A stretch of DNA of 64,000 bases, taken from the NCBI RefSeq assembly GCF_058153355.1, contig NZ_CM177019.1; one strand, 5' to 3'. The position numbers and the translations under genes are program-made. Of this stretch, positions 3,743 to 40,696 are shown one piece after another. The first letter of the stretch is position 1. Each line of letters opens with the position of its first letter. The notes under the pieces were generated by a model. That model was not told the origin of the DNA and searched no databases. It saw nothing but the letters and a program-made list of their open reading frames with translations.

Positions 3743-4278
<536 letters not shown>

Positions 4279-4279
4279 T

Positions 4280-4330
<51 letters not shown>

Positions 4331-4357
4331 GGGAGCGCAAGGCAGACAATTCTGTAA

Positions 4358-5003
<646 letters not shown>

Positions 5004-5075
5004 TTATTCCCAAGAATTGATAGTGAGCGTAATATTCACGCGCTCAATTATCATGACTAATTCCTGGGGAATGCT

Positions 5076-6116: not shown

Positions 6117-6130
6117 TTTGAGGGAAAACA

Positions 6131-6307
6131 TGTCGGATGCGGCGTAAACGCCTTATCCGACCTACGGTTTGCATCGTTGCAGGCCTGATAAGACGCGGCA
6201 AGCGTCGCATCAGGCAACGGCAGTCGGATGCGGCGCAGGCGCCTTATCTGACCTACGGTTTGTGTCGTGTAGGCCTGATAAGACGCGGCAAGCGTCGCAT
6301 CAGGCAT
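6131..6307. repeat. BIME/REP cluster (several inverted REP units)
   Basis: Repeated gcctgataagacgcg...cgtcgcatcaggc and cggatgcggcg...ccttatccg palindromic units. Confidence 0.85.
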
Positions 6308-6319
6308 TACAAGGTGCTG

Positions 6320-6895
6320 CTATTTAATAAACGTAAACGCTGTGGTTACACGTTTTACGCCGCTCACCCGACTGGCAATATCTGCCGCCGCTTTCGCTTC
6401 ACGTTCAGTCACCAGCCCCATCAGGAACACTTCACCGTTTTCGGTGGTCACTTTCACGTTGGACGATTTCACCAGGTCGCTGGTTAAGAGCTGCGAACGC
6501 ACTTTGGTGGTGATCCACGTATCGTTAGACGCTTCGCCCAGACCAATCGGCTGGCCCTGACGAATCTCGTTATACACTTCGTTGGCACCGTCTACGCCCA
6601 TCGCAATTTGTTTAGCGCGAGCCGAAAGTTCAGCGTTTGGTGACTGCCCAACCAGCAGCACTTTGCCCTGATAGGCCGTTACATTAATGCGAGCTTCTTT
6701 CTTGATTTGTTCGTCTTTCGACAATGCGCTGTTCACGCGCACTTCCAGGGTTCCATCGTCCACCTGGGTGCCGACACTGCGTGGGTCAGTTGCGGCTTTT
6801 GTACCCACAGCCGCGGTGCCCACTACGGCGGCAGCAACGCAACCTTGCAACAGCAGTGCGGAAATAAGGACTGCGATTGGCGATAATGCCTTCAT
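6320..6895 (-). CDS. dolP: BON-domain outer-membrane lipoprotein DolP (YraP)
   Basis: 191 aa with lipoprotein signal (LLQGC) and dual BON-like domains. Confidence 0.9.
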   Translation of the reverse strand: MKALSPIAVLISALLLQGCVAAAVVGTAAVGTKAATDPRSVGTQVDDGTLEVRVNSALSKDEQIKKEARINVTAYQGKVLLVGQSPNAELSARAKQIAMGVDGANEVYNEIRQGQPIGLGEASNDTWITTKVRSQLLTSDLVKSSNVKVTTENGEVFLMGLVTEREAKAAADIASRVSGVKRVTTAFTFIK

Positions 6896-6904
6896 GTATT
6901 CTCC

Positions 6905-7495
6905 TTAAACATCCTGGTGAGGGAAAAGCGTGTTATCGATCAGATCGCACAAGCAATTTACCGTCAGCATATGCATTTCCTGAATGCGAGCACTACGATG
7001 CGAAGGAATGCGGATCTCCACATCCTGTGGCCCTAACAACCCTGCAAGTTCGCCGCCGTCATAACCGGTCAATGCCACAATGGTCATATCACGCGTAACG
7101 GCGGCTTCAACTGCTTTAACAATATCGCGGCTGTTGCCACGGGTGGAAATGGCTAATAACACATCTCCCGCATGACCCAGCGCCCGCACTTGTTTTGCAT
7201 ACACTTCATCATGCAAACGATCGTTGGCAATCGCCGTTAAGACAACATTATCAGTATTTAGTGCAATGGCAGGTAAGCTGGGCCGCTCCGTTTCGAAACG
7301 GTTGATCATGCTGGCAGCAAAATGCTGTGCGTTGGCAGCAGAAGTTCCATTACCACAACAGAGGATTTTGTTGCCATTGAGCAGAGACTGAACCAGCGTC
7401 ATGGCTGCACGGGAGATGGCATCCGGAAGCGCCTCTGCTGCCGCAATTTGAGTTTGAATGCTTTCAGTGAAGCAAGCTTTAATTCGTTCTTGCAC
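6905..7495 (-). CDS. diaA: DnaA initiator-associating protein DiaA (SIS domain)
   Basis: 196 aa SIS-domain protein. Confidence 0.9.
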
Positions 7496-7514
7496 GCTAA
7501 TCCTTAAACCTTAA

Positions 7515-7910
7515 TTATGAGTGGTCATTAAAGGCATCCTTAATCCACTCAACTTCATTCCCGGTGAAGGCTACCACATCGAACCGGCAATCCACAGTAT
7601 CAAAACTCCCATTATGACGCGCGAGCCACAAGCGGGCAGTCTGTAATAATTTGTGTTGTTTGCTGCGGGTCACACTGGCTGCCGCACCACCGTAAAGGGC
7701 TGAGCGGCGGTAACGCACCTCGACAAAAACGGTGGTCCTGCCTTCACGCATTATCAGATCGATCTCGCCGCCACGCTCGTTCACGTTAGCGGCGACAAAC
7801 CGCAGTCCTTTGCTCTCCAGCCAGCGACGCGCTTGTGCTTCCCACGCATCGCCGGTCTGTTTAGTGGTTAACTGGCGGGGACTACCTGACCTTGTTGGTA
7901 CTGTAGCCAT
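7515..7910 (-). CDS. yraN: UPF0102 protein YraN
   Basis: 131 aa ORF; 3' end overlaps lpoA start by ~43 nt. Confidence 0.85.
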
Positions 7911-9904
7911 GATAACTTCCTGTTAATTACGCAATCCGGGTTAGCCGTCAGACTTCCGGTATTACCGTTGATTTCGAAACCCTGAACCTGGCGCATTTGT
8001 GAGAAATGATTTGCCAACGACCAGGCATCAACGCCCATCGCATACATGCGAGCCAGCGAATAATCGTTATTCACCGCACTGAGCGCCTGCTGCATTAATG
8101 GCAGATTACCGCCTGCCAGCATCGGGATTTCGCTATATTGCAAACCTTCCATTTCCAGACGGAAATCCGGACCCGCGGTGCCTTGTGCGCTTCGGGAGCT
8201 GGCGTACAGCGTTGCACCGCTCTGGCTACCGTTACGCATGGCGATCATCGGTTTGATAAAAGCGATTTCGCCCGGCGTTGCCACAATGTACACCGCATCG
8301 ACACGGCCGCCATTATTGGTGAACTGGTCATCGGTTGGCGTGGTTTGCAGCGTTGGATTGTTGGTCGTTATGCCTGAGTCGGTTGTCGCTCTGGGAGTAA
8401 TCGGGCTACCGGTTAAAGCGATACCAGAACCACCGTTAACACCCGCGCGTAATTCGCTGGTGGAACCAAATTTTTGTTGCAAAACGGTGCCGCCACCCAG
8501 TTTCTGCCACTCTTGCGCAAACGCATTGGCTACGCGATCGCCCAATGAACTGCGTGGGATCAGCACCAGCGGCGCTTGTTTACCCTGGTCACGAATATGA
8601 CGCGCTGCATCGCGCGCTTCGTCTTCCGGTGAAAGCGCGAAGTAACAAATATTGACGCGGTTTTCGATATTTTCTGGCTGGTTCAGTGCCAGCACGTTCA
8701 GCGGGGTGTTGCTTTTCAGTAACTCTTCAACGTTATTTTTCAGCAACGGACCGACCACAATACTCGCGCCATCCTGCTGAACCTGGTTGAGGATCTGGCT
8801 AAGCGGTTGTGATGAGGTATCATAAATTTTCAGCTCTGCGGATGGATTCGCGGGGGCGCTTACCGCCGCAGTGCTTGCCGCCGGGGCGCTTACAGGCACT
8901 GGTTGAGCCGCGGTTTCTTCGCCTGTCAGATCGCTAACCGAGGCTTGTGCCGGGCTGGCAACGCCATCCACGGTTTGCGGCTGAGGTTGTTCTGCTACGT
9001 CTGCGGCAGGTGCGGCAGCTACCTGAGCCGCCACTGGCTGAGTGCCGATATTTTTTGCCGCTTCAAAGCCTTGCTGAATAGTGCGACCAAATACCGCTGC
9101 CTGGCCATTCAGTGGCAACAGCAGGGCGATTTTGTTGGTCGATGCGGGTTTAAATGCTTTTACGTTTACCAACTGCGTAGGCAGCATTTTCGCGCCCGGG
9201 TTGTTCGGATAACGTTTCTGCCAGTCGGCGATCCCAGCTTTCATCATGTCGGGATCGTTACGGTTATCAAACCAGATGCGCTGCAGATCAAGCCAGCCTT
9301 GCAGAATATTTTCGTCGGCGTTGATCACCAGCGTATTCGCCTGGTCCTGAGTCATGGAGGAGAGTGCCTGCCATGTAGCATCAATATTCTGTTGCTTTTC
9401 TTTCGCGCCGAGCAGGGGTTCCTGAGCAATTAAGGCGCGCAGTAAATCAATGGAAGGACGCCCCTGGCTGGCATCGATTTTTGCCTGCCAGTAACGCGCT
9501 TGCTGGTTTTGTTCTAAATCTGCAGGTGTGATTTTCGCCAGCAAGTTTTGCGCGCCAGCAAAATCTTTCTGCGCCAGCTTAATTTCTACTGCCAGAAGAG
9601 TTTTCTCGCGACGCTGGTAATCGTTCAGTTCCTGCGGCAGTTGGTTAAACAGCTCCACCGCCTGCCCGGTTTTACCTTCTTTCACCAGTGTACGAATGGC
9701 GAGTAATTGCCAGTTGATCCTGGTATCATCAGCGCTTTGCTGCATCTGCTGAAGATAAAAGGCAGAATCAGCCTGCGCCGTGCCCTGCATATAAGCAGTG
9801 GACTGATCGGGAGTATGGGTGCCACAACCGGCGAAAATCAGGGCTGCCAGAACAACAGGCAGACAACGCGCGGCTTTCAAACGAGAAAATGTTGAGGGTA
9901 CCAT
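7868..9904 (-). CDS. lpoA: Outer-membrane lipoprotein LpoA, activator of PBP1A
   Basis: ORF 7868-9934; start at [10 protein letters not shown], lipobox LIFAGC, TPR-like N-terminus. Confidence 0.9.
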
Positions 9905-9968
9905 AATGTATCCAGTGATATTTTTTTTACGCAATGCTCAATATTAAATCGGCAATACGGACGACACA

Positions 9969-10832
9969 ATGAAACAACACCAATCGGCGGATAATTCTCA
10001 GGGCCAGCTTTACATTGTACCGACGCCAATCGGCAATCTGGCGGATATCACCCAGCGTGCGTTGGAGGTATTACAGGCCGTTGATCTGATTGCCGCCGAG
10101 GATACGCGTCACACCGGTTTATTGCTGCAACATTTTGGGATTAATGCTCGGTTGTTTGCGCTGCACGACCATAACGAACAACAAAAAGCCGAAACGCTGC
10201 TGGCGAAGCTGCAGGAAGGGCAAAACATTGCGCTGGTTTCCGATGCCGGAACGCCGCTAATTAACGATCCTGGCTACCATCTGGTGCGTACCTGCCGTGA
10301 AGCGGGCATTCGCGTGGTGCCGCTACCTGGACCGTGTGCTGCTATCACTGCTTTAAGCGCCGCGGGTTTACCATCCGATCGTTTTTGTTATGAAGGCTTT
10401 TTACCTGCCAAATCAAAAGGCCGTCGTGATGCGCTAAAAGCCATTGAAGCGGAGCCGCGTACGTTGATTTTTTATGAATCCACCCACCGTCTGTTAGATA
10501 GCCTGGAAGATATCGTTGCTGTGCTGGGTGAGTCCCGTTACGTGGTGCTGGCGCGTGAGCTCACCAAAACCTGGGAAACCATTCACGGCGCGCCCGTTGG
10601 CGAGCTGCTGGCGTGGGTCAAAGAAGATGAAAACCGTCGCAAAGGCGAAATGGTGCTGATTGTCGAAGGTCATAAAGCACAGGAAGAAGACTTACCCGCC
10701 GATGCCCTGCGCACGCTGGCGTTGTTACAGGCTGAGCTTCCGCTGAAGAAAGCGGCGGCGCTGGCGGCAGAGATTCACGGCGTGAAAAAAAACGCGCTGT
10801 ATAAGTATGCGCTGGAGCAGCAGGGGGAGTGA
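9969..10832 (+). CDS. rsmI: 16S rRNA 2'-O-methyltransferase RsmI
   Basis: 287 aa tetrapyrrole-methylase-fold protein. Confidence 0.9.
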
Positions 10833-21311: not shown

Positions 21312-21559
21312 TTTCCTCTCCAGTTCAGATTGCTGCGATATTAATCTTTCGTTTTGTTTCAGTTGATACTGCGTCATGGTGAGATAAAAATAAAACGAAA
21401 GATAATAGTTTTCTGATCTGATTCACAAAAGAAACATAATGAAAGTCTCTAAAACGAGAGTAGCTTGCGGCTGGGGGCAATGTGGGCTTGCATTTGCTTA
21501 ATAGAAAGGCGTTAATAGGCAAAACGAAATGAAACGAAAGTTTTACGAAAGGACTTACT
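21312..21559. promoter_or_regulatory. Divergent kbaZ / agaR promoter region with AgaR operator-like repeats
   Basis: Complements of aaaataaaacgaaag and gcaaaacgaaatgaaacgaaag give TTTCGTTTYATTTY-type motifs. Confidence 0.6.
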
Positions 21560-22369: not shown

Positions 22370-22901
22370 GAAATGGTGCCCGTAGCTCAACACGGATGTG
22401 TTCGGCGGGCATTGTTCACTGTCCTTTTACAGCCTGTTTTCTGCTCAAATTAGAAGCTTCAGCAAAGGTAATGCAAATGCATTATTAACAGCAGAAAGCG
22501 CCAGAACCAACGAAAAAAGAGAGCATGTTTCCCATTTTGCGAGGCGCTTTCCAAATCACCCGCTCAGTCCCCTCGCGTTGCAGTGCTAAAAGCACTATTT
22601 TGCAAATTTGTGACCTTCTTCACTCTCCCAAAAGGCGGTGATCTCACGGTGGGGATCCACTTTCTGCTTTCGCTTTTCTGCCGTTAGCACTCGCTATTTC
22701 GGCATCTCTTCTTTTCACTTTTTCAGTTTGTCATTTTCATTTGCGGTCAACCGAAAGTTCTGGAGTCGATTTTTCCAGGTTTCAACGCCGTTGTCGCGTT
22801 CACAAATTCACTTCTTTTCTTCTGATGTAATGCATTCAAAAGAAAATGAAAGCTGCAAAATGCAAGAATGCAACTAAATACTTTTTCAGGGAGCGATAAA
22901 C

Positions 22902-23672
22902 ATGCTAGATAGCCTAAGACGCCGCGAACAAATCATTGATTTGTTATGTGCCCAGGGAAGCGTACGCGTTGAGCCGCTCAGCATCCATTTTGGTGTCTCA
23001 TCGGTCACGATCCGCAATGACTTACGGTATCTGGAGCAAAAAGGTTGCGTCATGCGTTCCTATGGCGGTGCCGTGTTGAATCAACACTTTGCGCTCGACA
23101 GACCCTTGCAGGATAAAGATCGCCTTAATCGTGATGTTAAAGTGCGAATTGCCGAAAAAGCGGCCAGTTTTGTCAAAGATGGCGATACATTAATTATCGA
23201 TTCTGGTTCAACGACCACGCTAATTCCCGCTTCGCTCAAAGGGCGTCGGGATTTAGTCGTCATGACGAATGCCTTGAATATCGCCTGGGAAATGGCCAGT
23301 TTTGAACGGGTGGATGTTATGATCCTTGGTGGAAATGTTCGCCAGAGCGTCTACTCCCTGTATGGGCCTTCGGCAGAACAACAACTCCGGCAGTATCGCT
23401 TTGATAAGCTGTTTCTGGGCGTGGACGGCTTTTGCCTTGAAGCAGGGATTACCACGCCACATCCGGGTGAGGCACATCTGAACCAGGTGATGTGCCAGGT
23501 TGCGCAGGAAATTACTGTTGTCGCGGACTCCAGTAAATTTGGCCGCAAAAGCTTCTGTATGATCGGTGAAGTGAGCGAGATAGATCGACTGATTACCGAT
23601 AGCGGTATTCCGGAGAATTACAAAGCAGCATTAACGCAAATGGGTGTGGAAGTTGTGATTGCTGATGAGTGA
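22902..23672 (+). CDS. DeoR-family transcriptional regulator, AgaR paralogue (accessory)
   Basis: 256 aa; N-terminus RREQIIDLLCAQGSVRVEPLSIHFGVSSVTIRNDLRYLEQKG parallels AgaR; good RBS (GGGAG). Confidence 0.85.
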   Translation: MLDSLRRREQIIDLLCAQGSVRVEPLSIHFGVSSVTIRNDLRYLEQKGCVMRSYGGAVLNQHFALDRPLQDKDRLNRDVKVRIAEKAASFVKDGDTLIIDSGSTTTLIPASLKGRRDLVVMTNALNIAWEMASFERVDVMILGGNVRQSVYSLYGPSAEQQLRQYRFDKLFLGVDGFCLEAGITTPHPGEAHLNQVMCQVAQEITVVADSSKFGRKSFCMIGEVSEIDRLITDSGIPENYKAALTQMGVEVVIADE

Positions 23673-23676
23673 GAAA

Positions 23677-23708
23677 ATGTGGCTGGAGATAAACGTCGCC
23701 AGCCACAT
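23677..23708. terminator. Hairpin between convergent DeoR regulator and ROK kinase genes
   Basis: tgtggctgg...ccagccaca inverted repeat. Confidence 0.4.
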
Positions 23709-23716
23709 TACGTTAT

Positions 23717-24628
23717 TCAGGTTGCATGTTCGATTTGCAGCAACGCCGCGCCTCGTACACCGCTCGTTGCTCCGTGAATGGCAGAAAATACGCGCGCAGG
23801 TTCCAGTCCAGGAAGAAGATAACGCGTCATAGCTTTCGGCAATAACGTGTAAATTTCTTTGAAGTTAGACACACCGCCGCCAAGAACAAATGCATCTACG
23901 TCGAGAATATGCTGCAACTGTGCCAGCGTACAACCAACCATATCTATCCAGGCGCTAATGGTGGTGATGGCACTGGGAACGCCACGTTGATGATTTTCTA
24001 ACAATGTCTCCATAGTGATTTGCTCATCGCTGAAATGCTTATGTAACCAGAGCAAGCCAGGACCGGACTGGTAGCGTTCCAGGCACCCTTGCAAACCGCA
24101 GCCGCATTGTAATTCAGGCAGGTTATAGCGCCGCGTAAATGTCGCCGGGAGCGGTAAATGGCCAAACTCGCAGGCCATACGGTTACGGCCACGGTACAAC
24201 TGGCCATCAATAACTAATCCCCCGCCCATACCCGTGCCGATAATCGCGCCAAAGATCCGACTATATTGACGAGCTTGATCGGTATGCGCTTCTGATAGGG
24301 CGAAGCAGCAGCAGTCATTATCCATTATTACCGGGCGGTTAAGGCGATTTGCCAGATCGGTTAACACCTGGCGTCCGGTCAGGCAGGGAACGTTAGAAGA
24401 CAACAGTTTACCGGTGTGCCGATCCATAACGCCGGGCATCCCGATACCTATTTTGCCTTGCGTACCCGTGGCCCAGTCAGCGGTATCAATCAGAGACACA
24501 AATGTGGATAGAAAAAGCGCGTAATCCTGAACAGGCGTAGCTACCCGCTTGCGCCAGCAAATTTGTAAATCCTGATCAAAGGCGACTATCTCTGTTTTGG
24601 TTCCACCAATATCAACACCGTAAAACAT
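23717..24628 (-). CDS. ROK-family sugar kinase, NagK-like
   Basis: 303 aa; DIGGTK N-terminus and CGCG..C zinc motif as in N-acetylglucosamine kinase. Confidence 0.85.
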   Translation of the reverse strand: MFYGVDIGGTKTEIVAFDQDLQICWRKRVATPVQDYALFLSTFVSLIDTADWATGTQGKIGIGMPGVMDRHTGKLLSSNVPCLTGRQVLTDLANRLNRPVIMDNDCCCFALSEAHTDQARQYSRIFGAIIGTGMGGGLVIDGQLYRGRNRMACEFGHLPLPATFTRRYNLPELQCGCGLQGCLERYQSGPGLLWLHKHFSDEQITMETLLENHQRGVPSAITTISAWIDMVGCTLAQLQHILDVDAFVLGGGVSNFKEIYTLLPKAMTRYLLPGLEPARVFSAIHGATSGVRGAALLQIEHAT

Positions 24629-24646
24629 CGCTCATCTCCTTTGGTT

Positions 24647-25903
24647 TCACAGCACAACCAGGGTATTTTCCTTGCGAGCGCGTTCGGCGGCAAAGACCAT
24701 TAAATGACTTTCGAGCGATTCATCTGGTCCTGAAAGGATCATCGCTCGATCGTCAGCCATCACGGCATGGATAAAGCTGTCCATCAGATAGTAATCACCA
24801 CCACCGTGCCCTCCCATTTGGGTGTGAGTGCCTGCGTTTTTCTCTTCAACGGTGTAAATAGTTTCCTGGTCGGTGAGAAAATCAAAACACCGAATGGTGT
24901 TGCCATCGCCTTCCAGATAACCTTTCGAACCGAAAACTCGGGTTTTGCGATCCTCCATTTTCGTAAAGGCTGTCATTGTAAAAGTGACGCTCTGCTGATG
25001 CGCAAACTGCATGTTTACCACTTGATGATCAACAACATCGTTATCGCAGCAATAAACACAGCGACCATAGGGGCCGTCACGCAGGGCCTGACGAATATTC
25101 TCTTCAGTAGGATTTGGTGTTAACACGTGGCGAAAGTGAAACGTACATTTATGGGCTTCGCCAGCATAAATTTTGCATGCGGACCACGGGCAGGTCGCTT
25201 CTGCCTGGCAATCGAGACAGCGTTCGGCTGCGCCTTCAGGTTGGTTTTGTTTTACAAAATGGTTGAGCCCGCCAAATGAGCTAACGGTTTTACAGTTGTC
25301 TCCCATGATGTAGCGGATCCAGTCCAGATCGTGGCAGGACTTTTGTAACAACATAAATGATGATTCAGCCTCGTTGCGCCAGTTACCACGCACAAAAGAG
25401 TGTGCCTGGTGCCAGTAACCGACGGGTTCGAGATGCTGCATACTGATAATGTCGCCAATGATGCCGCTATCGAGTAAGAATTTGAGTTTTTGTGTATATC
25501 GGGTGTAACGAAGAACGTGTGCGACGGCTAATAAGACATTATTGCGTTTGACGGCATCAATGATAATGCGGCAATCGTGCTCTGTTGGCGCGAGCGGTTT
25601 TTCCAACAGAATGTGGTAACCGAGATCGGCAAAAGCGACGGCCGGATCTCTATGCATATTGTCTTGCGTACAAATAAGTACAGCATCAGCCATTTTTGGC
25701 CGAGCAGCAGCCTCTTTCCAGTTGCTAAAAATATTATCTGTCGGGATCGTATGCCGGGACACAACTTGCTCGCGGTAAGCCTCTCTAGGTTCAGCAACAC
25801 CTACCACTTGCATTCTGTCCGGATGCTCAAGGGCATAGCGGGAATATATTTCTCCACGTGCGCCTGCACCTATTACTAAAACAGTGACTTTATTTTTACT
25901 CAT
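24647..25903 (-). CDS. Gfo/Idh/MocA-family NAD(P)-dependent oxidoreductase with Cys-rich insert
   Basis: 418 aa; Rossmann N-terminus (VLVIGAGARG), EKP motif, Cys cluster CLDCQAEATCPWSACK...CVYCC. Confidence 0.8.
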   Translation of the reverse strand: MSKNKVTVLVIGAGARGEIYSRYALEHPDRMQVVGVAEPREAYREQVVSRHTIPTDNIFSNWKEAAARPKMADAVLICTQDNMHRDPAVAFADLGYHILLEKPLAPTEHDCRIIIDAVKRNNVLLAVAHVLRYTRYTQKLKFLLDSGIIGDIISMQHLEPVGYWHQAHSFVRGNWRNEAESSFMLLQKSCHDLDWIRYIMGDNCKTVSSFGGLNHFVKQNQPEGAAERCLDCQAEATCPWSACKIYAGEAHKCTFHFRHVLTPNPTEENIRQALRDGPYGRCVYCCDNDVVDHQVVNMQFAHQQSVTFTMTAFTKMEDRKTRVFGSKGYLEGDGNTIRCFDFLTDQETIYTVEEKNAGTHTQMGGHGGGDYYLMDSFIHAVMADDRAMILSGPDESLESHLMVFAAERARKENTLVVL

Positions 25904-25945
25904 ATAAAGAAATACCTTTCTGATAAATTCATCTTAATTGCTACG

Positions 25946-26704
25946 TTATAAATTACGAAAACTAACAAGATGAAATCCGTGTTTTTCAATCGCATATTTG
26001 AGTGACGGTGTAGTCAGAACCGTAAGTTCTTCCAGCCGTTGATAGCAGTAACTGCTCGACATTAAGTGGTTATCTACGAATCCAGGGTGACACATAATTT
26101 CCAGCGATTTTTCATCACGTTTTATGGCGCTATCGAGGAGTGATAAAAAAAAGTCTTCTGAAATATTATTATCGTAGAAATTACTGCTGAATCCCTCACT
26201 ACTTTTGGCATCCAGCGAATCGATTTTTTTCTCTCGCAGAACAGAATGGTCTATACGTAATGGTAAATTTTTCTCACGCGCGAACCGCGCGACAACGGGA
26301 TAAACCTGCGGGATCATATGAACGCTGTGATGGCTGTCTAAATGGGTGGGCTCCCGTTTAAATACATCAATAAAACGTTGATATTGAGAACTCAGTTCCT
26401 GTTCAATTTCACCCGTGTTTAATTGCCCTTGCTCCGCGACATCCCAGATCCATTTACCTAATTGGCCTGCGCGTACCAGCGAAGGCATATCCGTTAAGGC
26501 GGCGCCATAGCTCAAAACAAAATGTAACCCGACGCCGAGCTGTGGGGTTTCGGCACTTAAAGAGGCAGCATGATCAATTGCCGGAGCATTCATCATCGCA
26601 GTTGTTGAGCGAACGACACCATTTCGTACTGCCTCGATAATTCCATAATTAATACCTTTACTTAGTCCAAAGTCATCCGCATTCACAATTAATAAGCGTT
26701 GCAT
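25946..26704 (-). CDS. YdjC-family carbohydrate deacetylase (ChbG-like)
   Basis: 252 aa; NADDFG and HLDSHHxVH motifs. Confidence 0.85.
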   Translation of the reverse strand: MQRLLIVNADDFGLSKGINYGIIEAVRNGVVRSTTAMMNAPAIDHAASLSAETPQLGVGLHFVLSYGAALTDMPSLVRAGQLGKWIWDVAEQGQLNTGEIEQELSSQYQRFIDVFKREPTHLDSHHSVHMIPQVYPVVARFAREKNLPLRIDHSVLREKKIDSLDAKSSEGFSSNFYDNNISEDFFLSLLDSAIKRDEKSLEIMCHPGFVDNHLMSSSYCYQRLEELTVLTTPSLKYAIEKHGFHLVSFRNL

Positions 26705-26716
26705 AAGGCGTCCTTG

Positions 26717-28069
26717 TTATTGATGAGATTGGGTAAGTTCAGCAATGGTGCTGGAAAATTGAGGCAGATGTTTTTTATGGGCAATGATCAGTTCACGTAC
26801 TAATTTTTCAGCGTCGTTATCCGAGGTCATTAGCGGGTTAAGGCACAGAGCCAGCAGCGTATCGTTATAGTTACCACTTATTGCCGCCCGGGCTGCCGCA
26901 ATCTCAAAACATTTGATTGAATGAATGAGCCCCAGTACATTTTCGTCAAAATGAGTGAGACGCGGGTGGGGGGTAACACCGTTATTCCCCAGAATGCAGG
27001 TCATTTCAACGGTCCAGTCTTCAGGGATATTTTTTACACTGCCCTTGTGTGGAATATTAACGTAGTGTTCTGTTTGCGTGTCATTATAAATTGCATTAAT
27101 AACGGCACAGGCTGCATCTGAATAATACGCACCACCACGCAGATCCAGTTCTTCAGGTTTTGTATTTAGTTCTGGGTTCTTATACAGCTCAAATAATTTT
27201 CTCTCTAATGCCTGCACGACTTGTGCACGAACGCCATTTTTATAAAATTCCCCCATCTCAATAGCGAGCATTTCTTTATGTTTAAAATAGTAACGTAAGT
27301 AAGCACAGGGCAGGAGATTAAGTGCCCGAATTAAATTAGGATTGAAGGTTAAACTGTCAATATTTTTGACGGTACTTCCTTCAAGCAAACCTTCAACGAC
27401 GCCATCGAGCAATTCAGCAAAACGTGATTGTCCATTGACCCATACGTCTTTAAGAAAGACCATATGATTTAAGCCAAATATGTCTATTGAAAGATCATCG
27501 TCCGCGCCAAGTTTTAGGGCATTGCGAACGAAGCTCTTCATCCCAATAGGGACATTACAGACACCGATAAACCGTTTAAATTGGGTATGGCGGTACACGG
27601 CTTCAGTAACCATCCCGGCAGGATTGGTAAAATTAATAATCCAGGCATCAGGGCAAAGTTCCTCAACATCTTTGATAATATCAAAAACTACTGGAATGGT
27701 TCGTAACCCGTTGAATAAACCGCCCGCGCCATTGGTTTCTTGCCCGAGATATCCCTGACTTAGTGGAATCAACTCATCCATTTCCCGAGCTTTTAATTGC
27801 CCGACCCGAAATTGTGTGGTGACAAAGTGCGCGCCCTGTAATGCAGCGCGACGGTCAAGTGTTTTCACTATTTTTAACGGAATGCCAGCTTTTATCACCA
27901 TCCGCTGACAAAGGTCGAAAATAATGTCCAGCTTTTCTTTGCCTTCTTCAATATCAACTAACCATAATTCACTGACCGGTAATTCATCGTAGCGTTTTAT
28001 GAATCCTTCAAGGAGTTCTGGTGTATAGCTACTGCCACCGCCAATAGTAACGATTTTTAAGTTTTTCAT
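26717..28069 (-). CDS. Glycoside hydrolase family 4 6-phospho-beta-glucosidase (ChbF-like)
   Basis: 450 aa; strong similarity to ChbF by recall (IGGGSSYTPELLEGFIKRY, NFTNPAGMVTEA). Confidence 0.9.
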   Translation of the reverse strand: MKNLKIVTIGGGSSYTPELLEGFIKRYDELPVSELWLVDIEEGKEKLDIIFDLCQRMVIKAGIPLKIVKTLDRRAALQGAHFVTTQFRVGQLKAREMDELIPLSQGYLGQETNGAGGLFNGLRTIPVVFDIIKDVEELCPDAWIINFTNPAGMVTEAVYRHTQFKRFIGVCNVPIGMKSFVRNALKLGADDDLSIDIFGLNHMVFLKDVWVNGQSRFAELLDGVVEGLLEGSTVKNIDSLTFNPNLIRALNLLPCAYLRYYFKHKEMLAIEMGEFYKNGVRAQVVQALERKLFELYKNPELNTKPEELDLRGGAYYSDAACAVINAIYNDTQTEHYVNIPHKGSVKNIPEDWTVEMTCILGNNGVTPHPRLTHFDENVLGLIHSIKCFEIAAARAAISGNYNDTLLALCLNPLMTSDNDAEKLVRELIIAHKKHLPQFSSTIAELTQSHQ

Positions 28070-28145
28070 GTTACTTCCATACTCAATATTAAATTGACTT
28101 GTGATGCCATGGTTTATCTAAACGCTGGCATGATGAAGCGTGCTA

Positions 28146-29506
28146 TTAAAACTTTAATGCATTGGCAATGTCTTCTTCGCTTTCTTGTTTAATTATTTCA
28201 ACTTGTGCTTTGTTTGAGATAATGACAAAGGGAAGATAAACCATTGTGGCAACACCTAAGTTAAAGAGCGCCAGGAGTAATCCAGCAATGCTTCCATTCG
28301 AGCTAAAGAACGCATTGAGTCCAGGAGGCATGGTCCAGGGGGCAATATTTGTTGATGGCGGAATAATACCCATGTTATAGGCGATTAAGGTAATCCCGGC
28401 GAGAATGGGTTGAATCATCACAAACGGGATTAACATAATGGGGTTCATAATGATCGGCAAACCAAATAAAATAGGTTCGTTGATATTAAAGATACCAGAA
28501 GGTAACGCTAATTTAGCAACCTGACGATAATCTTCCCGGCGTGACGCAATGAAAATGGCGAAAATGAGTCCCAGCGTTGCCCCTGTTCCACCGAGGAACA
28601 CGTAAGCGTCAAGCATTGGCCCGGTCCAGAAATGGAAGGTTTTTCCTGCTTCCAGTGCCGCTTGTACTGAACCATATTGTGTATAGGTGGCGATATTCTC
28701 CAGTCCCCACGGACCCAACGTGCTGCTTTGCAACGCGGTTAATACTAAGCCGCCGTGGATACCAAAGAACCATAACAGGGAATTAAAGACAACGAATGTC
28801 CAGCCAACAATACCGCTCATTGACGTTAATGGCGTAGCCAGTGAGGTGATAATGACCTGATGGAAATTGGTGCCATATATCGACAATATCCCAGACAAAC
28901 TACCCATAATTAACAGGATGATAAACCCGGGCACCATTGCTGAGAATGAGCGTGATACTGCGGCCGGAACACTCGCGGGCAACCGAATCACCCAGTTGCG
29001 GCGGATAATAAAAGCGAAAATTTCCGCTACAACTAATCCAATGATCATACCAGACAGAATATTGGCGCCGCCTAACCAGTTTGCACCAATGACATTAGCG
29101 GTTTCTCCTGCCTTGAAGGGGGTGACAGTCATAAACGCTGCGACAGAGAGTAAGCCAACGGATAACGAATCAACTTTCCGTTCTTCGGCCAACCCCATCC
29201 CAATAAAAAAGGGGGTCATGAGTGACATAATGCCCAGCGTGCCATGATAAGCACTGTCACCGACGACGGTGAAGGCGCTTAAGGTTTTTATGGTCGATGG
29301 TTCCAGTCGGACGCCTAATGAATAAAAAAGGAGCCTTCGCCAAAATCTAAAAAAACGCTATTAATGAGGACAAATAACGTACCGGCTAACGTTAATGGCA
29401 TCATACGGATAAAACCGTTTTTTATTGCATTGACGTGAGGTTGTTTCCCTAATTTAACTGCAAAAGGAAGAATGAGTTTTTCAAGTAACGCCATCACTCC
29501 GGGCAT
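28146..29506 (-). pseudogene. PTS lactose/cellobiose-family EIIC (ChbC-like) split by a frameshift
   Basis: N-terminal 63 aa (29506-29315, ...[12 protein letters not shown]) and C-terminal 360 aa (from 29228) are in different frames; the second frame reads FYSLGVRLE... upstream to the junction. Confidence 0.75.
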
Positions 29507-29575
29507 AAAAATATCCTTATATACCGATTAATGTATCACTGCGACTTTGGTTTTATTAATATCCTGTTGCTATGG

Positions 29576-29893
29576 TTACTTTTGCTCTTTTTTTATTATG
29601 GCGATAGCTGATTTTAGAACACCTAAGCCATCAATTTTTCCATATAACATTGAATCAATAACTTCCACTGGCTTTCCTGGTAATAAGCTTTGGATCTCTG
29701 ATTGCATGTAAGCAATTTGAGGTCCCAATAATATAACATCGGCTTCCGGCCCTTTCTCTGCGGCAACAGATTCGGAGAATGCTTCGATAATTACTGGCAC
29801 ATCATATTTTATCGCCTGCACTTTCATTTTTGACACCAGCAGTGATGTTGACATTCCCGCTGAACAAAATAAGTATATTTTTTTCTTTTCCAT
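29576..29893 (-). CDS. PTS lactose/cellobiose-family EIIB (ChbB-like)
   Basis: ORF 29576-30109; start at [20 protein letters not shown] (phospho-Cys motif), ~105 aa. Confidence 0.85.
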
Positions 29894-30278
29894 AGGGACT
29901 CCAGATATATTACGTAATAATATATTTGTCATGCCATGAATGGCATATGAGGCGACTTTAATTAAAAAGGCACGGATGTTTATATTGATTTCCTGAATGT
30001 CGTCTTTTGGTATTAATCTCAAAAATTTCAGGAGCCATTGAATAATCTGGTTTATAGGATTGAATGTCAAGAGAGTGAAATTGTGGGCGTGTTGTAATAA
30101 AAATAGCACGGCTTTCGGTAGGTTTCTTTTTTAGCGGAATGAAAAGTACAGGCAAAATGGTAATTGAATAAATTAACGTTTTTTCAATAGATTACGTTTT
30201 TTCCTGCCTACAGGAATGAAAAAAACAACAATCTAAAAATACTTTAGATATGTGAGAGTTATCACTTACTTTTCGTGG

Positions 30279-30311
30279 GGAAAACGGGGAAACACAGTCT
30301 CCCCGTTTTCC
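30279..30311 (-). terminator. Stem-loop immediately downstream of garD
   Basis: ggaaaacgggga / tccccgttttcc perfect 12 bp inverted repeat. Confidence 0.4.
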
Positions 30312-30326
30312 GTTCATGCAAGGCCG

Positions 30327-31898
30327 TCAAGTCACCGGTGCCGGGTTAAACACCGCCAGTTGGTTATGCAGCCCCCATTGATCCGAGAAGGTTTTCTTCT
30401 TCCCGCTGGCGACGTCGAGAATAAAGTGGAACAGCTTCCAGCCCACTTCTTCTATGGTTTCTTCGCCGGTGGCGATGGTGCCTGCGTTGATATCCATTAA
30501 GTCAAACCAACGGTTTGCCAGTTCGGTGCGGGTTGCCATTTTAATGACGGGTACCGCCATCAGGCCGTACGGCGTACCACGGCCGGTCGTAAACACTTGC
30601 ACGGTGATACCCGAAGCCACCTGTTGCGTGCCACAGACAAAATCGCTGGCTGGCGTCGCGGCGTAAATTAATCCGCGTTTAGTCGGGCGTTGACCGGGCG
30701 ATAGCACTTCAACAATTGCGCTTTTACCCGATTTAGCAATGGAGCCGAGAGCCTTCTCCACTACGTTTGCCAGACCGCCTTTCTTGTTGCCCGGAGAAGG
30801 GTTGGCGCTGCGGTCGGTTTTTCCCATATTGAGATAGTTATCGTACCACTCCATCTCTTCCAGCAGACGCTTGCCGACCTCTTCGTTCACTGCGCGCGGC
30901 GTCAGCAGATGGATCGCGTCACGCACTTCTGTGACTTCTGAAAACATCACCGTTGCGCCGCAGCGCACCAGTAGATCAGACGCATACCCAACCGCCGGGT
31001 TTGCCGTTACGCCAGAAAACGCATCGCTGCCACCGCATTGCATGCCGACAACCAGTTCTGAAGCCGGACAGGTTTCTCGCTGACGTTGATTCAGTTTTTG
31101 TAGATGGCGTTCGGCGACCTGCAAAATATCCTCGACCATGGACTGAAAACCGACATGCTTTTCATCCTGCAAACTGACAATGCTGGCGCTTTCTACTGGA
31201 ATAGCTTGCACATCATCCGTTCCAGTCAGCAGGCGCTCAGGCTGCAACTTTTCACAACCCAGACCAATCACCATTACTTCGCCGCCAAAGTTAGGGTTCA
31301 GCGAAATATTGTGAATGGTACGGATAGGCACAACTGCCGCCGGTGCGTTAATCGCCACGCCACAACCGTACAAATGATTCAGCCCCACCACGCCATCGAC
31401 GTTCGGGTATTTCGGTAGCAGATCGCGTTCAATGATTTTTACTACGTAGTCCACCACGCCTGCCACACAGTGGACGCTGGTGGTGATGCCGAGCAGGTTT
31501 TTGGTGCCCACGCTGCCATCAGCATTGCGATAGCCCTCAAAGGTGTATCCTTCCAGCGGCGGTAAGGGTTCCGGGACTTTGGTTGCCAGTGGCAGCGTGT
31601 GTAACGGCGGCGCTTCCGGTAGTACAACCATTGATTCGTCGATCCAGCTTCCGCGTGGGATTGCGCGCACGGCGTAACCAATCACTTCGCCATAACGAAT
31701 AATTTCACCATTAGCCGGAATGTCCAGCAATGCGACTTTATGCCCCTGGGGAATATGTTCAATTAATTCCAGCCCATCCGGAAAACGCGTTCCTGCTTTC
31801 AGGCCATTATCATTAACAATAATTGCCACATTATCTGTGTCGTGAACTTTTATATAAAACGCAGTTGGCGTTTCTTGTCTGATTTCGATGTTGGCCAT
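30327..31898 (-). CDS. garD: Galactarate dehydratase GarD
   Basis: 523 aa, SAF + D-galactarate dehydratase domains. Confidence 0.9.
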
Positions 31899-37237: not shown

Positions 37238-38407
37238 TTATATTTCATTTAAAAGATCGTAATCATACGTATATTCTTTGCTAATAAAACGACACTCGTT
37301 GAAGCTAAATTCATCGTCTGAAAAGGAATTGTCAACAGAATCTCTCTCTTCCTCCAGGCTATTATCTGAAAGCAAGTCGTTTGAGTTAGTATAATCCAGG
37401 TTGTAATCGACAGTATAATTAATTTCTGGATCGGTTTGGTAATCATTTTTTTTGACGCAATCATATTCTTCAATAATTTTGTCGATATAATCATATGCTT
37501 TTTCTAATGAGAAGTTTTTCATCTCTGGTAATTTAACTTTGCTCAAATAATTATTAATTTTTGAGGGGTTTTTATATATGCTTTTTGTTAATTCTTTTTC
37601 TAATTTGTCTGTTATATTTGCTGTTGGTATGGATTTTATAATCGCATATCTCATGATTTTTAATTGATCTTCGGTTAAATCTCCAAGCTCATTTAAACAA
37701 CTTTCGACAAAGTTGATTTTTTCTCTGGAATAATCATCGCTGATACTTGTTAACGCTGGGGTGATTTTTAATAAAGAATTCCATGAGATAGTACCATTGT
37801 GTGTCGAACGCATAAAATTTATATTGTACATATTGGTTTTAGTAAACTTTGTTGCAAACAATGTAAAGGGATCTAAAGTCGCGTAAGCCATATGTTTATT
37901 TGAAAAATCATAACCAGTTAAATCGACGTTATGCAAGTCCAGATAGGATAAATCTATTACGTCGCCTGCTCCAGAGCTAAAGATTACATTTAGTCTTCTG
38001 ATTTCATTATGAATTTCCTTTAATGAACAATTTATGTTCATGATGTCTGTTGAAATTTTTTTGTTATTTAACGGTTCACAAATTATAAGTTCGCAAGTAT
38101 TGTCTGATCGTTGCGTTATTTGGGCATTATAACCTAAAAAGTCTATGCGAAGAGACGAGTCATTATAAAGTATTACATTTTTTAAGTATGCTAATTCTTG
38201 TTGAAAATCACCATCGATAATACATGTCCCACCAGGTTGCAACGCGCTGATTAACGTGACCATTTGTTTAGAAGTCTGTATTAGTTTTACTACACCTGGT
38301 GCTAGTGCTTTGAGGTCATTTATTATGGGGTTTTCAGGAAGGTCATTCATTTTTATACATACTAAATTATTACCTAAGTCATTACCTATTGATGAAACCG
38401 GGAACAT
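37238..38407 (-). CDS. yhaC: Uncharacterized protein YhaC (AT-rich; repeat-containing)
   Basis: 389 aa, N/D/Y-rich acidic C-terminus; low-GC gene. Confidence 0.75.
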   Translation of the reverse strand: MFPVSSIGNDLGNNLVCIKMNDLPENPIINDLKALAPGVVKLIQTSKQMVTLISALQPGGTCIIDGDFQQELAYLKNVILYNDSSLRIDFLGYNAQITQRSDNTCELIICEPLNNKKISTDIMNINCSLKEIHNEIRRLNVIFSSGAGDVIDLSYLDLHNVDLTGYDFSNKHMAYATLDPFTLFATKFTKTNMYNINFMRSTHNGTISWNSLLKITPALTSISDDYSREKINFVESCLNELGDLTEDQLKIMRYAIIKSIPTANITDKLEKELTKSIYKNPSKINNYLSKVKLPEMKNFSLEKAYDYIDKIIEEYDCVKKNDYQTDPEINYTVDYNLDYTNSNDLLSDNSLEEERDSVDNSFSDDEFSFNECRFISKEYTYDYDLLNEI

Positions 38408-38428
38408 TATTTTATCCTTTTTAAATAA

Positions 38429-38998
38429 TCAATGAGAATCATGATTAAAATGATCTGGTGAAAAAAAGAGAATTTGCCAACAATCTGAAACATTGTCAGT
38501 TTTATTAAAATGATTAAATTCCGTTAAGATAACTTCTTTTTGCGTGAACTTTGCGCAAAACTTAAAAATTGTCTCCTTGATACACTCCAGATCTTTTCTA
38601 TTGATGGCTGAACAAGTACATTTTTCGCCAAAAGGTGAAAATGTGCCTACATCTAAAGTTTGTATTATATAATCATCATTTACTCCTGTAGAAATATCTA
38701 TGATGAATGGACTTCTATTTTCCGGTTGGATTCGGATCATTACAGAAGAAACATCACCTTTATAGACATTCAATGCAGTAATCGCAGATAATATTCTCCG
38801 CAATTCATTGCTTATGCTGTAAATTTCATTAACGTCATTTGTCGATATAATCTCGGCAAATTTTATTTTTACCTTCCAATAATCAATGTTTCTATTATAA
38901 GTGTTAACAGTTTCGTACATTGGTGGTATCGAAGGGGGTAAAAAATGTGAAACCGAATAACCTTTCATTGATGCCTGCCTTGTCATCATGACAAACAA
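38429..38998 (-). CDS. yhaB: Uncharacterized protein YhaB
   Basis: 189 aa ORF directly downstream of yhaC, AT-rich; start uncertain. Confidence 0.65.
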   Translation of the reverse strand: MFVMMTRQASMKGYSVSHFLPPSIPPMYETVNTYNRNIDYWKVKIKFAEIISTNDVNEIYSISNELRRILSAITALNVYKGDVSSVMIRIQPENRSPFIIDISTGVNDDYIIQTLDVGTFSPFGEKCTCSAINRKDLECIKETIFKFCAKFTQKEVILTEFNHFNKTDNVSDCWQILFFSPDHFNHDSH

Positions 38999-39206
38999 TA
39001 ATCAATGCTTATTTTCCTTGCACGGTTCGCTCACAACTATCAAAAAACGCTCAATTACCCGGCATTACAGTCAACGAAGCAAAATTCTGTGGTCTACAAC
39101 GATGTAAAGCACAACGAAAATCCTCCTTGTTCTCTTATTCTGATCGTATAGCGATGAACATCAATTATTCGTTTTGTGATCATCAACACAAAATGCTATT
39201 TAGTAA

Positions 39207-39581
39207 CTATGGTGACAGTAGAAACGAGGGGAAACGATTGCATTCACAAAATGACGTCCTGTAAGAAGGGTGAAAGTTGATGTTAATCAATTGTTCGAGA
39301 TGATCAATATCTGTATTCGAAATTTTAAAACATTGATAAAATAAATGTTTGCCCTCCAACAAATAGCGAGAAAAAATGTGACGTGCCGCATTATTTATCG
39401 CTGAAAATGATTTATTTATAATAAAATTTGATAACTTGCTCATAAAATTTAACTCAAAATTTGCCTGGTAATTATCCGCTAATTGCTTGAAATATGGTCG
39501 CAGCTGCTTTTTTTTATTAACCACATAACGAATGATGTTATCGCCATAAAATATGGTTATCCCTGTCATTTTTTTTGACAA
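39207..39581 (-). CDS. tdcR: Putative tdc operon regulator TdcR (start uncertain)
   Basis: AT-rich ORF divergent from tdcA, position as recalled for tdcR. Confidence 0.5.
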   Translation of the reverse strand: MSKKMTGITIFYGDNIIRYVVNKKKQLRPYFKQLADNYQANFELNFMSKLSNFIINKSFSAINNAARHIFSRYLLEGKHLFYQCFKISNTDIDHLEQLININFHPSYRTSFCECNRFPSFLLSP

Positions 39582-39757
39582 AAATCAGGGTTTATGCTGA
39601 TTTATATACTTTAACTTATTGATATATAAGAATATTTAATTGATACAGTGATGTCCAAAAAAGTATTGAAAGTTAATTTGTGAGTGGTCGCACATATCCT
39701 GTTCATTTCATTTTGATACACTTCATGCCGCCAATGAGGTTATTAACGTAGGTAGTT

Positions 39758-40696
39758 ATGAGCACTATTCTTCTTCCGAAAACGCAGCATCTGGTAGTCT
39801 TTCAGGAAGTCATTAGAAGTGGCTCTATCGGCTCGGCTGCAAAAGAATTAGGGTTAACTCAACCCGCCGTCAGTAAAATCATTAACGATATTGAAGACTA
39901 TTTTGGTGTGGAATTAGTGGTGCGGAAAAATACCGGTGTAACATTAACACCTGCCGGTCAATTGTTACTTTCCCGTTCCGAATCCATTACCCGTGAAATG
40001 AAAAATATGGTTAATGAGATAAGCGGTATGTCTTCTGAGGCGGTGGTGGAAGTCTCATTCGGTTTTCCTTCATTGATTGGTTTTACTTTTATGTCCGGGA
40101 TGATCAACAAGTTCAAAGAGGTGTTCCCGAAAGCGCAGGTTTCTATGTATGAAGCGCAACTGTCTTCGTTCTTACCGGCAATCCGTGACGGTCGCCTGGA
40201 TTTTGCGATTGGTACGTTAAGCGCAGAAATGAAGCTTCAGGATTTACATGTTGAGCCGCTGTTCGAGTCCGAGTTTGTGTTGGTAGCCAGTAAGTCCCGA
40301 ACATGCACCGGCACCACCACGCTGGAGTCGTTGAAGAACGAACAGTGGGTGTTGCCACAAACCAATATGGGGTACTACAGCGAGCTGCTCACCACGTTAC
40401 AAAGAAATGGCATCAGTATTGAAAACATCGTTAAAACCGACTCAGTCGTGACAATTTATAATCTTGTTCTCAATGCTGATTTCTTAACTGTAATTCCTTG
40501 TGATATGACTTCACCTTTTGGTTCTAATCAATTTATTACTATTCCGGTTGAAGAAACATTACCTGTGGCACAATATGCCGCGGTATGGTCGAAAAATTAT
40601 CGTATTAAAAAAGCAGCATCGGTTTTGGTGGAATTAGCCAAAGAGTATTCATCTTATAATGGGTGTAGACGAAGGCAATTAATTGAAGTTGGTTAG
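39758..40696 (+). CDS. tdcA: LysR-family activator TdcA
   Basis: 312 aa LysR-type regulator. Confidence 0.9.
   Translation: MSTILLPKTQHLVVFQEVIRSGSIGSAAKELGLTQPAVSKIINDIEDYFGVELVVRKNTGVTLTPAGQLLLSRSESITREMKNMVNEISGMSSEAVVEVSFGFPSLIGFTFMSGMINKFKEVFPKAQVSMYEAQLSSFLPAIRDGRLDFAIGTLSAEMKLQDLHVEPLFESEFVLVASKSRTCTGTTTLESLKNEQWVLPQTNMGYYSELLTTLQRNGISIENIVKTDSVVTIYNLVLNADFLTVIPCDMTSPFGSNQFITIPVEETLPVAQYAAVWSKNYRIKKAASVLVELAKEYSSYNGCRRRQLIEVG

Follow-up and report, generated by a model that had tools for sequence, protein, structure and literature searches.

Why should a sugar-utilisation operon of Escherichia coli encode, between a deacetylase and a sugar kinase, a Gfo/Idh/MocA superfamily member with a large cysteine-rich insertion? 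The question is raised by an open reading frame (ORF) with an ATG start at 24647-25903(-) of the window, by which is meant the whole 64,000-nucleotide stretch of E. coli DNA analysed here (NCBI RefSeq assembly GCF_058153355.1, contig NZ_CM177019.1). Its 418-residue product, referred to below as Gfo, belongs to a family that is annotated everywhere merely as oxidoreductase. The most likely answer is that Gfo is a glycosidase which keeps NAD+ as a catalytic cofactor, and not a net dehydrogenase. In a more specific form, to which we give somewhat better than even chances, Gfo would be a cytoplasmic N-acetylhexosaminidase that uses an NAD cofactor in the manner of glycoside hydrolase family 109 (GH109), carries a structural Cys4 metal site, and passes N-acetylgalactosamine (GalNAc) or another N-acetylhexosamine (HexNAc) on to the kinase encoded beside it. 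The analysis establishes how the protein is built and conserved, that it shares a motif with GH109, and which genes accompany the family; how it catalyses, on what substrate and with what metal, we infer.

Domains and active-site motifs

A sequence-only reading of this locus had described a 418-residue protein with a Rossmann N-terminus and an EKP motif, and both are indeed present. Pfam places GFO_IDH_MocA at residues 7-129 (6e-19) and GFO_IDH_MocA_C / C3 at 138-414; these are the Rossmann NAD(P)-binding domain (PF01408) and the C-terminal alpha/beta domain (PF02894/PF22725) by which the superfamily is recognised. The dinucleotide-binding motif is G12-A-G-A-R-G17 (GAGARG; 25853-25870(-)). In the family alignment (A1), G14, R16 and G17 are invariant, as are E38 and P39, and E38, which closes beta-2, points to NAD rather than NADP as the cofactor. 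The protein has neither a signal peptide nor an N-terminal extension, the first Rossmann strand beginning at residue 6. An AF2 model built from 127 sequences has a mean pLDDT of 96.3.

Conservation was followed in two sets of proteins: 113 full-length, distant representatives at 36-55% identity, and 85 homologues from named genomes. The EKP motif (E101-K102-P103; 25595-25603(-)) carries the superfamily's catalytic or NAD-contacting lysine, and K102 is present in 110/113 representatives and in all of the genome homologues (85/85). A second motif, K188-S-C190-H191-D192-L-D194 (25322-25342(-)), was located from the translation and from hidden Markov model (HMM) alignments. Its H191, D192 and D194 are found in 113/113 representatives, and H191 again in 85/85 genome homologues. 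Y133 is kept in 83/85 of the latter. The superfamily's combination of an EKP lysine and a catalytic histidine on the helix that enters the C-terminal domain is accordingly seen in Gfo, with the difference that the usual Asp of the D-x3-H pattern is replaced by Lys or Gln in this family (K188/Q187).

Among solved proteins, E. coli YjhC and RgNanOx are nearest to Gfo in sequence, with a match limited to residues 1-212. They are the best sequence and profile matches in the Protein Data Bank (PDB), reaching an E-value of 3e-30 with the family profile. In the HMM alignments, the EKP of Gfo falls on that of both proteins, and H191 falls on the catalytic His178 of RgNanOx, the roles of residues in that enzyme being taken from PMC7535918. 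YjhC and RgNanOx are 2,7-anhydro-Neu5Ac oxidoreductases (6z3b/c, 6o15) that use NAD in a redox-neutral way. Their proximity would fit a Gfo that is itself a redox-neutral NAD-cofactor isomerase, either a NanOx-like hydratase of anhydro-sugars or a 4-epimerase that converts free GalNAc to N-acetylglucosamine (GlcNAc) and supplies a NagK-like kinase. The kinase encoded next to Gfo is in fact NagK-like, and an epimerase would go well with neighbours of the GlcNAc type (chb) as well as of the GalNAc type (aga). We nevertheless consider an isomerase quite unlikely. The H-H-x-H sequence of the NanOx/YjhC group (the NanOx HxxH) is replaced in Gfo by K-S-C-H, which places it outside that group. RgNanOx and YjhC also lack the insertion and show no match to the C-terminal loop, both described below, and they act in a different sugar context. 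No sialic-acid genes were found among the neighbours at 89 Gfo loci, nor is there an anhydro-sugar context.

A Cys4 signature in a family-specific insertion

The family has an insertion of its own, about 80 residues long (residues 212-290; 25034-25270(-)), which separates strands one and two of the C-terminal sheet. In the family-profile alignment, RgNanOx spans the equivalent of residues 212-290 with about 12 residues, which makes this a true insertion in Gfo. The sequence-only reading had described some nine cysteines in an insert of about 60 residues. The insert is real and somewhat larger than that, but the cysteines number eight, in 58 residues (C229, 232, 238, 243, 253, 282, 285 and 286), out of 13 in the whole protein. 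The strings that had been quoted for it are present in the translation: 25058-25219(-) reads CLDCQAEATCPWSACKIYAGEAHKCTFHF...GRC, then CVYCC just downstream, and the Cys-rich stretch as a whole is CLDCQAEATCPWSACK...CTFHF...GRCVYCC.

The same reading had suggested a metal or iron-sulfur (Fe-S) site and had made this depend on conservation of the cysteines among orthologues. Four of the eight are conserved and the other four are not. C229, C238 and C282 occur in 113/113 representatives and C232 in 112/113, and each of the four occurs in 83/85 genome homologues. C286, which lies just downstream of the signature, is a frequent fifth cysteine (71/113 representatives), and C243, C253 and C285 are confined to the enterobacterial lineage. 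The four near-invariant residues form the pattern C229-x2-C232-x5-C238...x43...C282 (25058-25219(-)), a predicted Cys4 metal-site signature with four invariant ligands, which is also kept in the scallop and crab orthologues. Structure prediction and fold searches, as had been proposed, model the insert at pLDDT >=93 and find no PDB chain that covers it. The gap is visible in the scores, with TM values of 0.64-0.72 when normalised to the query and of 0.73-0.84 when normalised to the target.

What metal might these cysteines bind? A structural Zn(Cys)4 site is favoured here, because the protein has no flavin or relay domain, there are four ligands and not three, the family is plentiful in aerobes and animals, and the cysteines lie in knuckle-like coil. 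It is improbable, although the spacing invites the idea, that the four residues ligate an Fe-S cluster, [4Fe-4S] or another, for redox, sensing or electron transfer. The C-x2-C-x5-C arrangement with a distal Cys, and with a Pro after the third Cys (C238-P239), presumably resembles the Fe-S loop of EndoIII/MutY, and all four ligands are invariant in aerobes and anaerobes alike. On the other hand, Pfam detects no flavin or other electron-relay domain, ligation by four cysteines argues against a Lewis-acid cluster, and members abound both in strict aerobes and in animals. The model also shows mainly coil and short helix around the cysteines, as is typical of zinc knuckles. A structural metal bound in this way would rigidify the 80-residue insertion, which flanks the active-site strands. 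It might also be that the metal is a redox-sensitive Fe-S cluster or a zinc switch that gates activity. A literature search for Gfo/Idh/MocA proteins in connection with iron-sulfur, zinc or GalNAc returned nothing relevant.

A putative catalytic loop shared with GH109

A second feature of the family is an invariant GH-G-G-[GA]-D-[YF] loop. In Gfo this is G364-G-H366-G-G-G-D370 (24794-24814(-)), at the N-terminus of a C-terminal helix, and it is proposed to be the loop that supplies the catalytic acid/base. H366 is found in 106/113 representatives, and H366 and D370 are each found in 83/85 genome homologues. The catalytic acid/base of GH109 sits in a conserved GGHGG loop, according to Teze 2020 as cited in PMC10755693. 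A profile restricted to residues 288-418 (A6) was searched against 177,635 PDB sequences at E<=10, and it matched just two of them, both GH109: AmGH109A (6t2b) and NagA of Elizabethkingia (2ixa). Both align on MGGHGG(G/M)D(Y/F) together with the next helix, MGGHGGGDYYLMDSFIHAV against MGGHGGMDFVMLSRIVECL. That only GH109 should be matched, among roughly 100 solved Gfo/Idh/MocA proteins, is a striking specificity, despite weak E-values. The family profile was needed to bring it out; a phmmer search with the C-terminal 79 residues by themselves matched no PDB sequence. Because the Gfo family shares the catalytic GGHGG loop of GH109, the glycosidase reading is favoured, and the suggestion of the sequence-only reading that such a protein can act as a glycosidase is supported to that extent.

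Gfo would plausibly work like a GH109, GH188 or GH4 enzyme, yet by sequence it is not a member of GH109. The GH109 enzymes, which are NAD+-dependent alpha/beta-N-acetylgalactosaminidases (NagA, 2ixa/2ixb; AmGH109A of Akkermansia, 6t2b; BT4243), are secreted with a Tat signal and have an N-terminal extension of 60-90 residues, which Gfo lacks; the GH109 fragments examined carry RRxFLK signals and PF10518, and the secreted or periplasmic location of that family does not apply to Gfo. They have EVP in place of EKP and do not have the 80-residue Cys4 insertion. By motif, the GH109 catalytic residues Tyr226 (GEAAYIH) and His259 (YPTHGLGP) look like EPVGY163WH and KSCH191DLD of Gfo, with no alignment that spans them. 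The GH188 sulfoquinovosidases SqgA (8qc2, 8qc3, 8qc5) are 16-20% identical to Gfo, lack the Cys4 insertion, and have sulfonate-binding residues and a sulfoquinovose gene context where Gfo has a HexNAc one. In published descriptions, GH177 and GH179 are NAD-dependent, Rossmann-fold families related to GH109 that abound in environmental and rumen metagenomes. Their founding members are an archaeal beta-GlcNAc-ase/beta-glucosidase (QFQ13829.1), on whose family the papers disagree, and the Tannerella sialidase SiaHI.

Several observations weigh against a glycosidase. Fold searches place YjhC, RgNanOx and SqgA at or near the top, but ordinary dehydrogenases rank about as high as the NAD-dependent glycosidases, and since they score almost as well, the fold alone is not decisive. 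The two GH109 loop matches, on which the GGHGG loop with its acid/base His was recognised at residues 364-370, are statistically weak (E 0.11 and 0.16). Pfam Glyco_hydro_109_C (PF21252), which the GH109 fragments carry, does not match Gfo even at E<=10, and hhalign against N-terminal GH109 fragments (<=268 residues) covers the Rossmann domain only, ending at residue 154. The EKP that the Gfo family keeps where GH109 has EVP is dehydrogenase-like, and Y163, the candidate equivalent of Tyr226, varies between Y, W and F in the 85 genome homologues. In E. coli, a glycosidase is already present in the operon, the GH4 enzyme, and many Gfo loci are without sugar context. Heterologously expressed GH109/177/179 homologues of Fervidibacter were inactive. 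As for the lysine, SqgA likewise keeps the Lys of EKP (PMC10755693).

An alternative is that Gfo performs net redox turnover as a true NAD-dependent dehydrogenase or ketoreductase of sugars, acting on free sugar released by GH4 or another glycosidase; an example would be a HexNAc or glycoside 3-dehydrogenase of the BT2158/BT2159 or levoglucosan-dehydrogenase type. The ranking of dehydrogenases in the fold searches and the EKP motif would agree with such an enzyme, but on balance we regard it as unlikely. The curated NCBIfam models all stay well short of their cutoffs: the top-scoring equivalog, for UDP-GlcNAc 3-dehydrogenase, gives 82 bits against 450, and all other scores are far under their cutoffs as well. 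An ordinary inositol or glucose-fructose dehydrogenase, the alternative named by the sequence-only reading, is therefore not what the search recovers. A dehydrogenase would also leave the invariant GH109-type GHGGGD loop unexplained.

Divergent paralogues with neither the Cys4 motif nor the GHGGGD loop are encoded at two loci (L088, 12267-13454, and L059, 9688-11226), one of them 3 kb from a canonical Gfo copy in a metagenome-assembled genome (MAG) of Verrucomicrobia. Gain or loss seems to affect both signatures at once.

Genomic partners of the family

Gene neighbourhoods were compared at 89 Gfo loci, and the proximity of kinases was counted in the 62 that have adequate flanks. A sugar kinase lies within three genes of Gfo in 25/62 loci, and these kinases belong to four superfamilies (15 ROK, 5 APH, 4 GHMP and 1 BadF-NagK). 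The ROK kinase is directly adjacent at 15 loci, in Proteobacteria, Ktedonobacter and Actinobacteria. APH-family kinases are found at 7 loci, or 5 without duplicate contigs, and at one Vibrio locus an APH kinase is paired with a GalT-like DUF4922 protein. Two of the four GHMP kinases adjoin a GlmU-like uridylyltransferase, and NTP-transferases occur at 5 loci; some of the Gfo-linked kinases are followed by NDP-sugar transferases. Since the kinases come from four unrelated superfamilies and phosphorylate C6 in some cases and C1 in others, their common denominator would be a free (N-acetyl)hexosamine delivered by Gfo. The 3-keto sugar or lactone expected of a dehydrogenase misfits these C6 and C1 kinases and the NDP-sugar transferases, and the census found no recurrent lyase, isomerase or lactonase genes as partners.

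The other recurrent neighbours are a CUT1-type ABC importer (21 loci), an AgaR-type DeoR regulator (9 loci), AgaS (6 loci), KbaY, AgaA and an M20 deacylase (4 loci each), and at one locus a GPH glycoside symporter. AgaS, KbaY, KbaZ, AgaA, a PfkB kinase and AgaR-type regulators adjoin Gfo in Proteobacteria, Chloroflexi and Deinococcales. One operon of Deinococcales has the order ABC-PfkB-NagK(BadF type)-AgaS-Gfo. The genomic partners tie Gfo to the metabolism of N-acetylhexosamines and of GalNAc. They also speak against an isomerase, as the adjoining AgaS, KbaY and PfkB argue that GalNAc-6-P is metabolised as such and not epimerised, and the CUT1 and GPH importers, together with GH29 and peptidase neighbours, indicate glycosides over monosaccharides. 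The C-terminal loop, too, matches GH109 and not NanOx.

The constancy of the kinase is best seen in the closest relatives of the E. coli locus. In Citrobacter werkmanii (84% identity; L011) and in Enterobacteriaceae RIT691 (L012), the gene order is garD; SBP-perm-perm-ATPase-Gfo-ROK, where SBP is a substrate-binding protein and perm a permease; agaR2; and agaR-kbaZ-agaVWEF-agaA. The region at 3700-10200 of these two loci occupies the same slot as the E. coli island and has no other glycosidase; an ABC importer replaces the GH4/ChbG/PTS front end, where PTS stands for phosphotransferase system. The uptake and first-cleavage module is swapped around a constant core of Gfo, ROK kinase and regulator. 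The sequence-only reading had paired Gfo with GH4, a deacetylase and a kinase. The genes are co-directional in E. coli as stated, but the conserved functional partner is the kinase, and not GH4, ChbG or the PTS.

A GH29 alpha-L-fucosidase gene lies directly upstream of Gfo, on the same strand, at 8 loci from six phyla (cluster 9 in L021, L025, L043, L045, L057, L066, L069 and L088). This hints that fucosylated HexNAc glycans are the substrates there, which the GalNAc model alone does not explain. In a further enterobacterial context, that of Citrobacter youngae (L016, 3587-9266), the gene of a GPH-family glycoside:cation symporter is followed by that of an 896-residue protein, which matches no NCBIfam model and overlaps the start of Gfo, and then by Gfo itself, with a GHSGGD variant of the loop.

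Recycling of anhydro-MurNAc was considered on account of AmgK/MurU-like neighbours, namely the APH kinases and NTP-transferases. It was set aside, as those proteins reach no NCBIfam model and the surrounding aga, GH29 and GH123 genes speak for GalNAc and host glycans. The Gfo/Idh/MocA protein AgaO of Shewanella, which we take to be annotated as GH109, was also considered as a member of the same family. In the AgaR regulon of Shewanella, agaO adjoins a ROK-type GalNAc kinase, and its product is described as a secreted lipoprotein, for which reason it was rejected (PMC2996990 supplements).

Proposed mechanism and substrates

If Gfo is a glycosidase, its mechanism would be of the oxidation-elimination-hydration-reduction class, as known from GH109, GH4 and GH188. 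NAD+ would oxidise the C3-OH of a terminal N-acetylhexosamine with the assistance of K102 and H191. The C2 proton, acidified by this oxidation, would then be removed and the aglycone eliminated (E1cB), with H366 in the G-H-G-G-G-D loop acting as acid/base. Water would add back, NADH would reduce C3, and a free HexNAc, probably GalNAc, would be released. This sugar would be phosphorylated by the ROK kinase and enter the adjacent aga pathway, which leads from GalNAc to tagatose.

The rest of the E. coli operon can be accommodated as follows. The chb-like PTS (EIIB and EIIC) would import a beta-GlcNAc-terminated glycoside and phosphorylate it at C6, ChbG would take off the acetyl group, and GH4 would then free GlcN-6-P. 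The unphosphorylated HexNAc glycoside left over would be the substrate of Gfo. It is speculative to name this substrate; candidates are core-3 GlcNAc-beta1,3-GalNAc-alpha-Ser/Thr fragments, GalNAc-alpha-Ser/Thr, and a HexNAc disaccharide or oligosaccharide.

A precedent for this arrangement exists in Bacteroides thetaiotaomicron. There, the GH109 enzyme BT4243 acts on Tn antigen and on Forssman and A-antigen structures, and the GalNAc that it sets free is phosphorylated by an APH kinase from the same operon, BT4240 (PMC11992087). By analogy, the pair of Gfo and kinase parallels this characterised pair.

The E. coli operon and its island

The operon consists of six co-directional genes on the (-) strand, in the order EIIB, EIIC, GH4, ChbG-like, Gfo and ROK kinase. 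The intergenic gaps are short, at 18, 42, 12, 76 and 69 bp as counted from the kinase end. The ROK-family kinase (23717-24628(-)) begins 18 bp downstream of the Gfo gene. It is NagK-like, its NCBIfam NagK score of 306.9 bits being below the cutoff of 380, and it is proposed to be the kinase for the released HexNAc, similar to AgaK.

Upstream of Gfo, the ChbG-type chitooligosaccharide deacetylase of the YdjC family (25946-26704(-)) reaches equivalog level (NF002559, 350 bits against 227) and is chbG in RefSeq. The GH4 enzyme (26717-28069(-)) is an NAD/Mn-dependent 6-phospho-beta-glucosidase of the ChbF/LicH type according to RefSeq and to its PDB matches 5c3m (1e-152) and 1s6y (1e-151). The ChbC-like EIIC (28146-29506(-); NCBIfam NF007634) is frameshifted and has in-frame stops. 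Compared with the intact gene of E. coli R32_14_1F, it has a 1-bp deletion at about 29324-29329, where T7 has become T6. Strain EC42405, too, has an intact EIIC gene. In the window the gene is either a pseudogene in the source strain or the result of a homopolymer sequencing error. The ChbB-like EIIB (29576-29893(-)) is supported by NCBIfam NF007796 (187.8 bits against 157) and by RefSeq.

EIIB, EIIC, GH4 and ChbG, as recognised by NCBIfam, PDB and RefSeq matches, make this a chb-type PTS operon, with paralogues at or near equivalog level of the genes of the E. coli chitobiose operon, chbBCARFG. It differs from the latter in that no EIIA (ChbA) and no AraC-type ChbR were found among the ORFs of the island. 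The island has Gfo and the ROK kinase in addition, its regulator is an AgaR-type DeoR protein, and it lies beside the aga cluster. This regulator, a second AgaR-type repressor (agaR2; 22902-23672(+)), is convergent with the operon and reaches equivalog level for AgaR (365 bits against 260). CTTTC/GAAAG repeats, which are like AgaR operators, are enriched upstream of agaR2 (6 in 532 bp; interval 22650-22770) and also between agaR and kbaZ (5 in 182 bp; interval 21378-21559). Upstream of the EIIB gene they are not enriched, with a single copy. Scans for promoters and terminators gave results no better than shuffled sequence.

The operon and agaR2 form an island of 8 kb (22370-30330) between agaR and garD, which replaces most of the prlF-yhaV genes of most E. 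coli genomes. A remnant of prlF remains at 22405-22488, and 5155/5158 matching genomes match only this 84-bp piece. The full island is present in 3/5426 complete E. coli genomes, from isolates of goat, bovine and guinea-fowl origin. Its G+C content of 0.42-0.48 is lower than that of the flanks (0.52-0.53), which suggests horizontal acquisition. Elsewhere in the window there is a G+C trough of 0.336 at 38001-40000, in surroundings of about 0.5; this may be another horizontally acquired segment.

Distribution and biological meaning

This is a large and unusually conserved family, with more than 8000 word-sharing matches at E<=1e-10 that have about 60% identity across phyla, and an exhaustive search found at least 884 clusters (50% identity) at E<=1e-30. 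Homologues of 50-60% identity are found in Enterobacteriaceae, Vibrio, Chloroflexi, Planctomycetes, PVC phyla, Actinobacteria, Deinococcales and Thorarchaeota, and, much as GH177 and GH179 abound in rumen metagenomes, the family is frequent in MAGs of rumen Lentisphaeria and Kiritimatiellae. No matches to the Gfo, GH4 or ROK proteins were found in PHROGs.

Eukaryotes have the protein as well. Full-length matches in AFDB50 (TMq 0.91-0.96; 44-52% identity to the E. coli protein) come from oomycetes, amoebae, chytrids, annelids, molluscs, crustaceans, fish (zgc:154075), turtle, lamprey, Naegleria and choanoflagellates. The genes of the scallop Pecten maximus (P0124, XP_033750096.1) and the crab Eriocheir sinensis (P0361, XP_050732994.1) are chromosomal, and the proteins retain EKP, CCHDVD, the Cys4 pattern and a GH[GS]G[GA]D[YF] loop.

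A bolder proposal, which we put forward tentatively and with more doubt than confidence, is that these proteins constitute a new GH family or a deep GH109-like branch: cytosolic NAD-cofactor N-acetylhexosaminidases with an active-site lid ordered by a Cys4 metal centre, conserved at about 50% identity across E. coli, Asgard archaea, protists, molluscs, crustaceans and fish (zgc:154075). In all three domains of life, they would supply the missing entry step to HexNAc/GalNAc salvage, upstream of the GalNAc kinases.

Oxidoreductive glycosidases that depend on NAD (GH4, GH109, GH177, GH179 and GH188) are rare; they can act on both anomers and on poor leaving groups, and GH109 has been applied in blood-group conversion. 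If the proposal is true, this class would gain a metal-stapled architecture, and an orphan gene of vertebrates and invertebrates a function. It would also explain how numerous GalNAc/HexNAc clusters with importer and kinase, and no classical glycosidase, reach their substrates. In E. coli, the island would be a rare accessory that extends the aga pathway to HexNAc glycosides of the host-glycan type.

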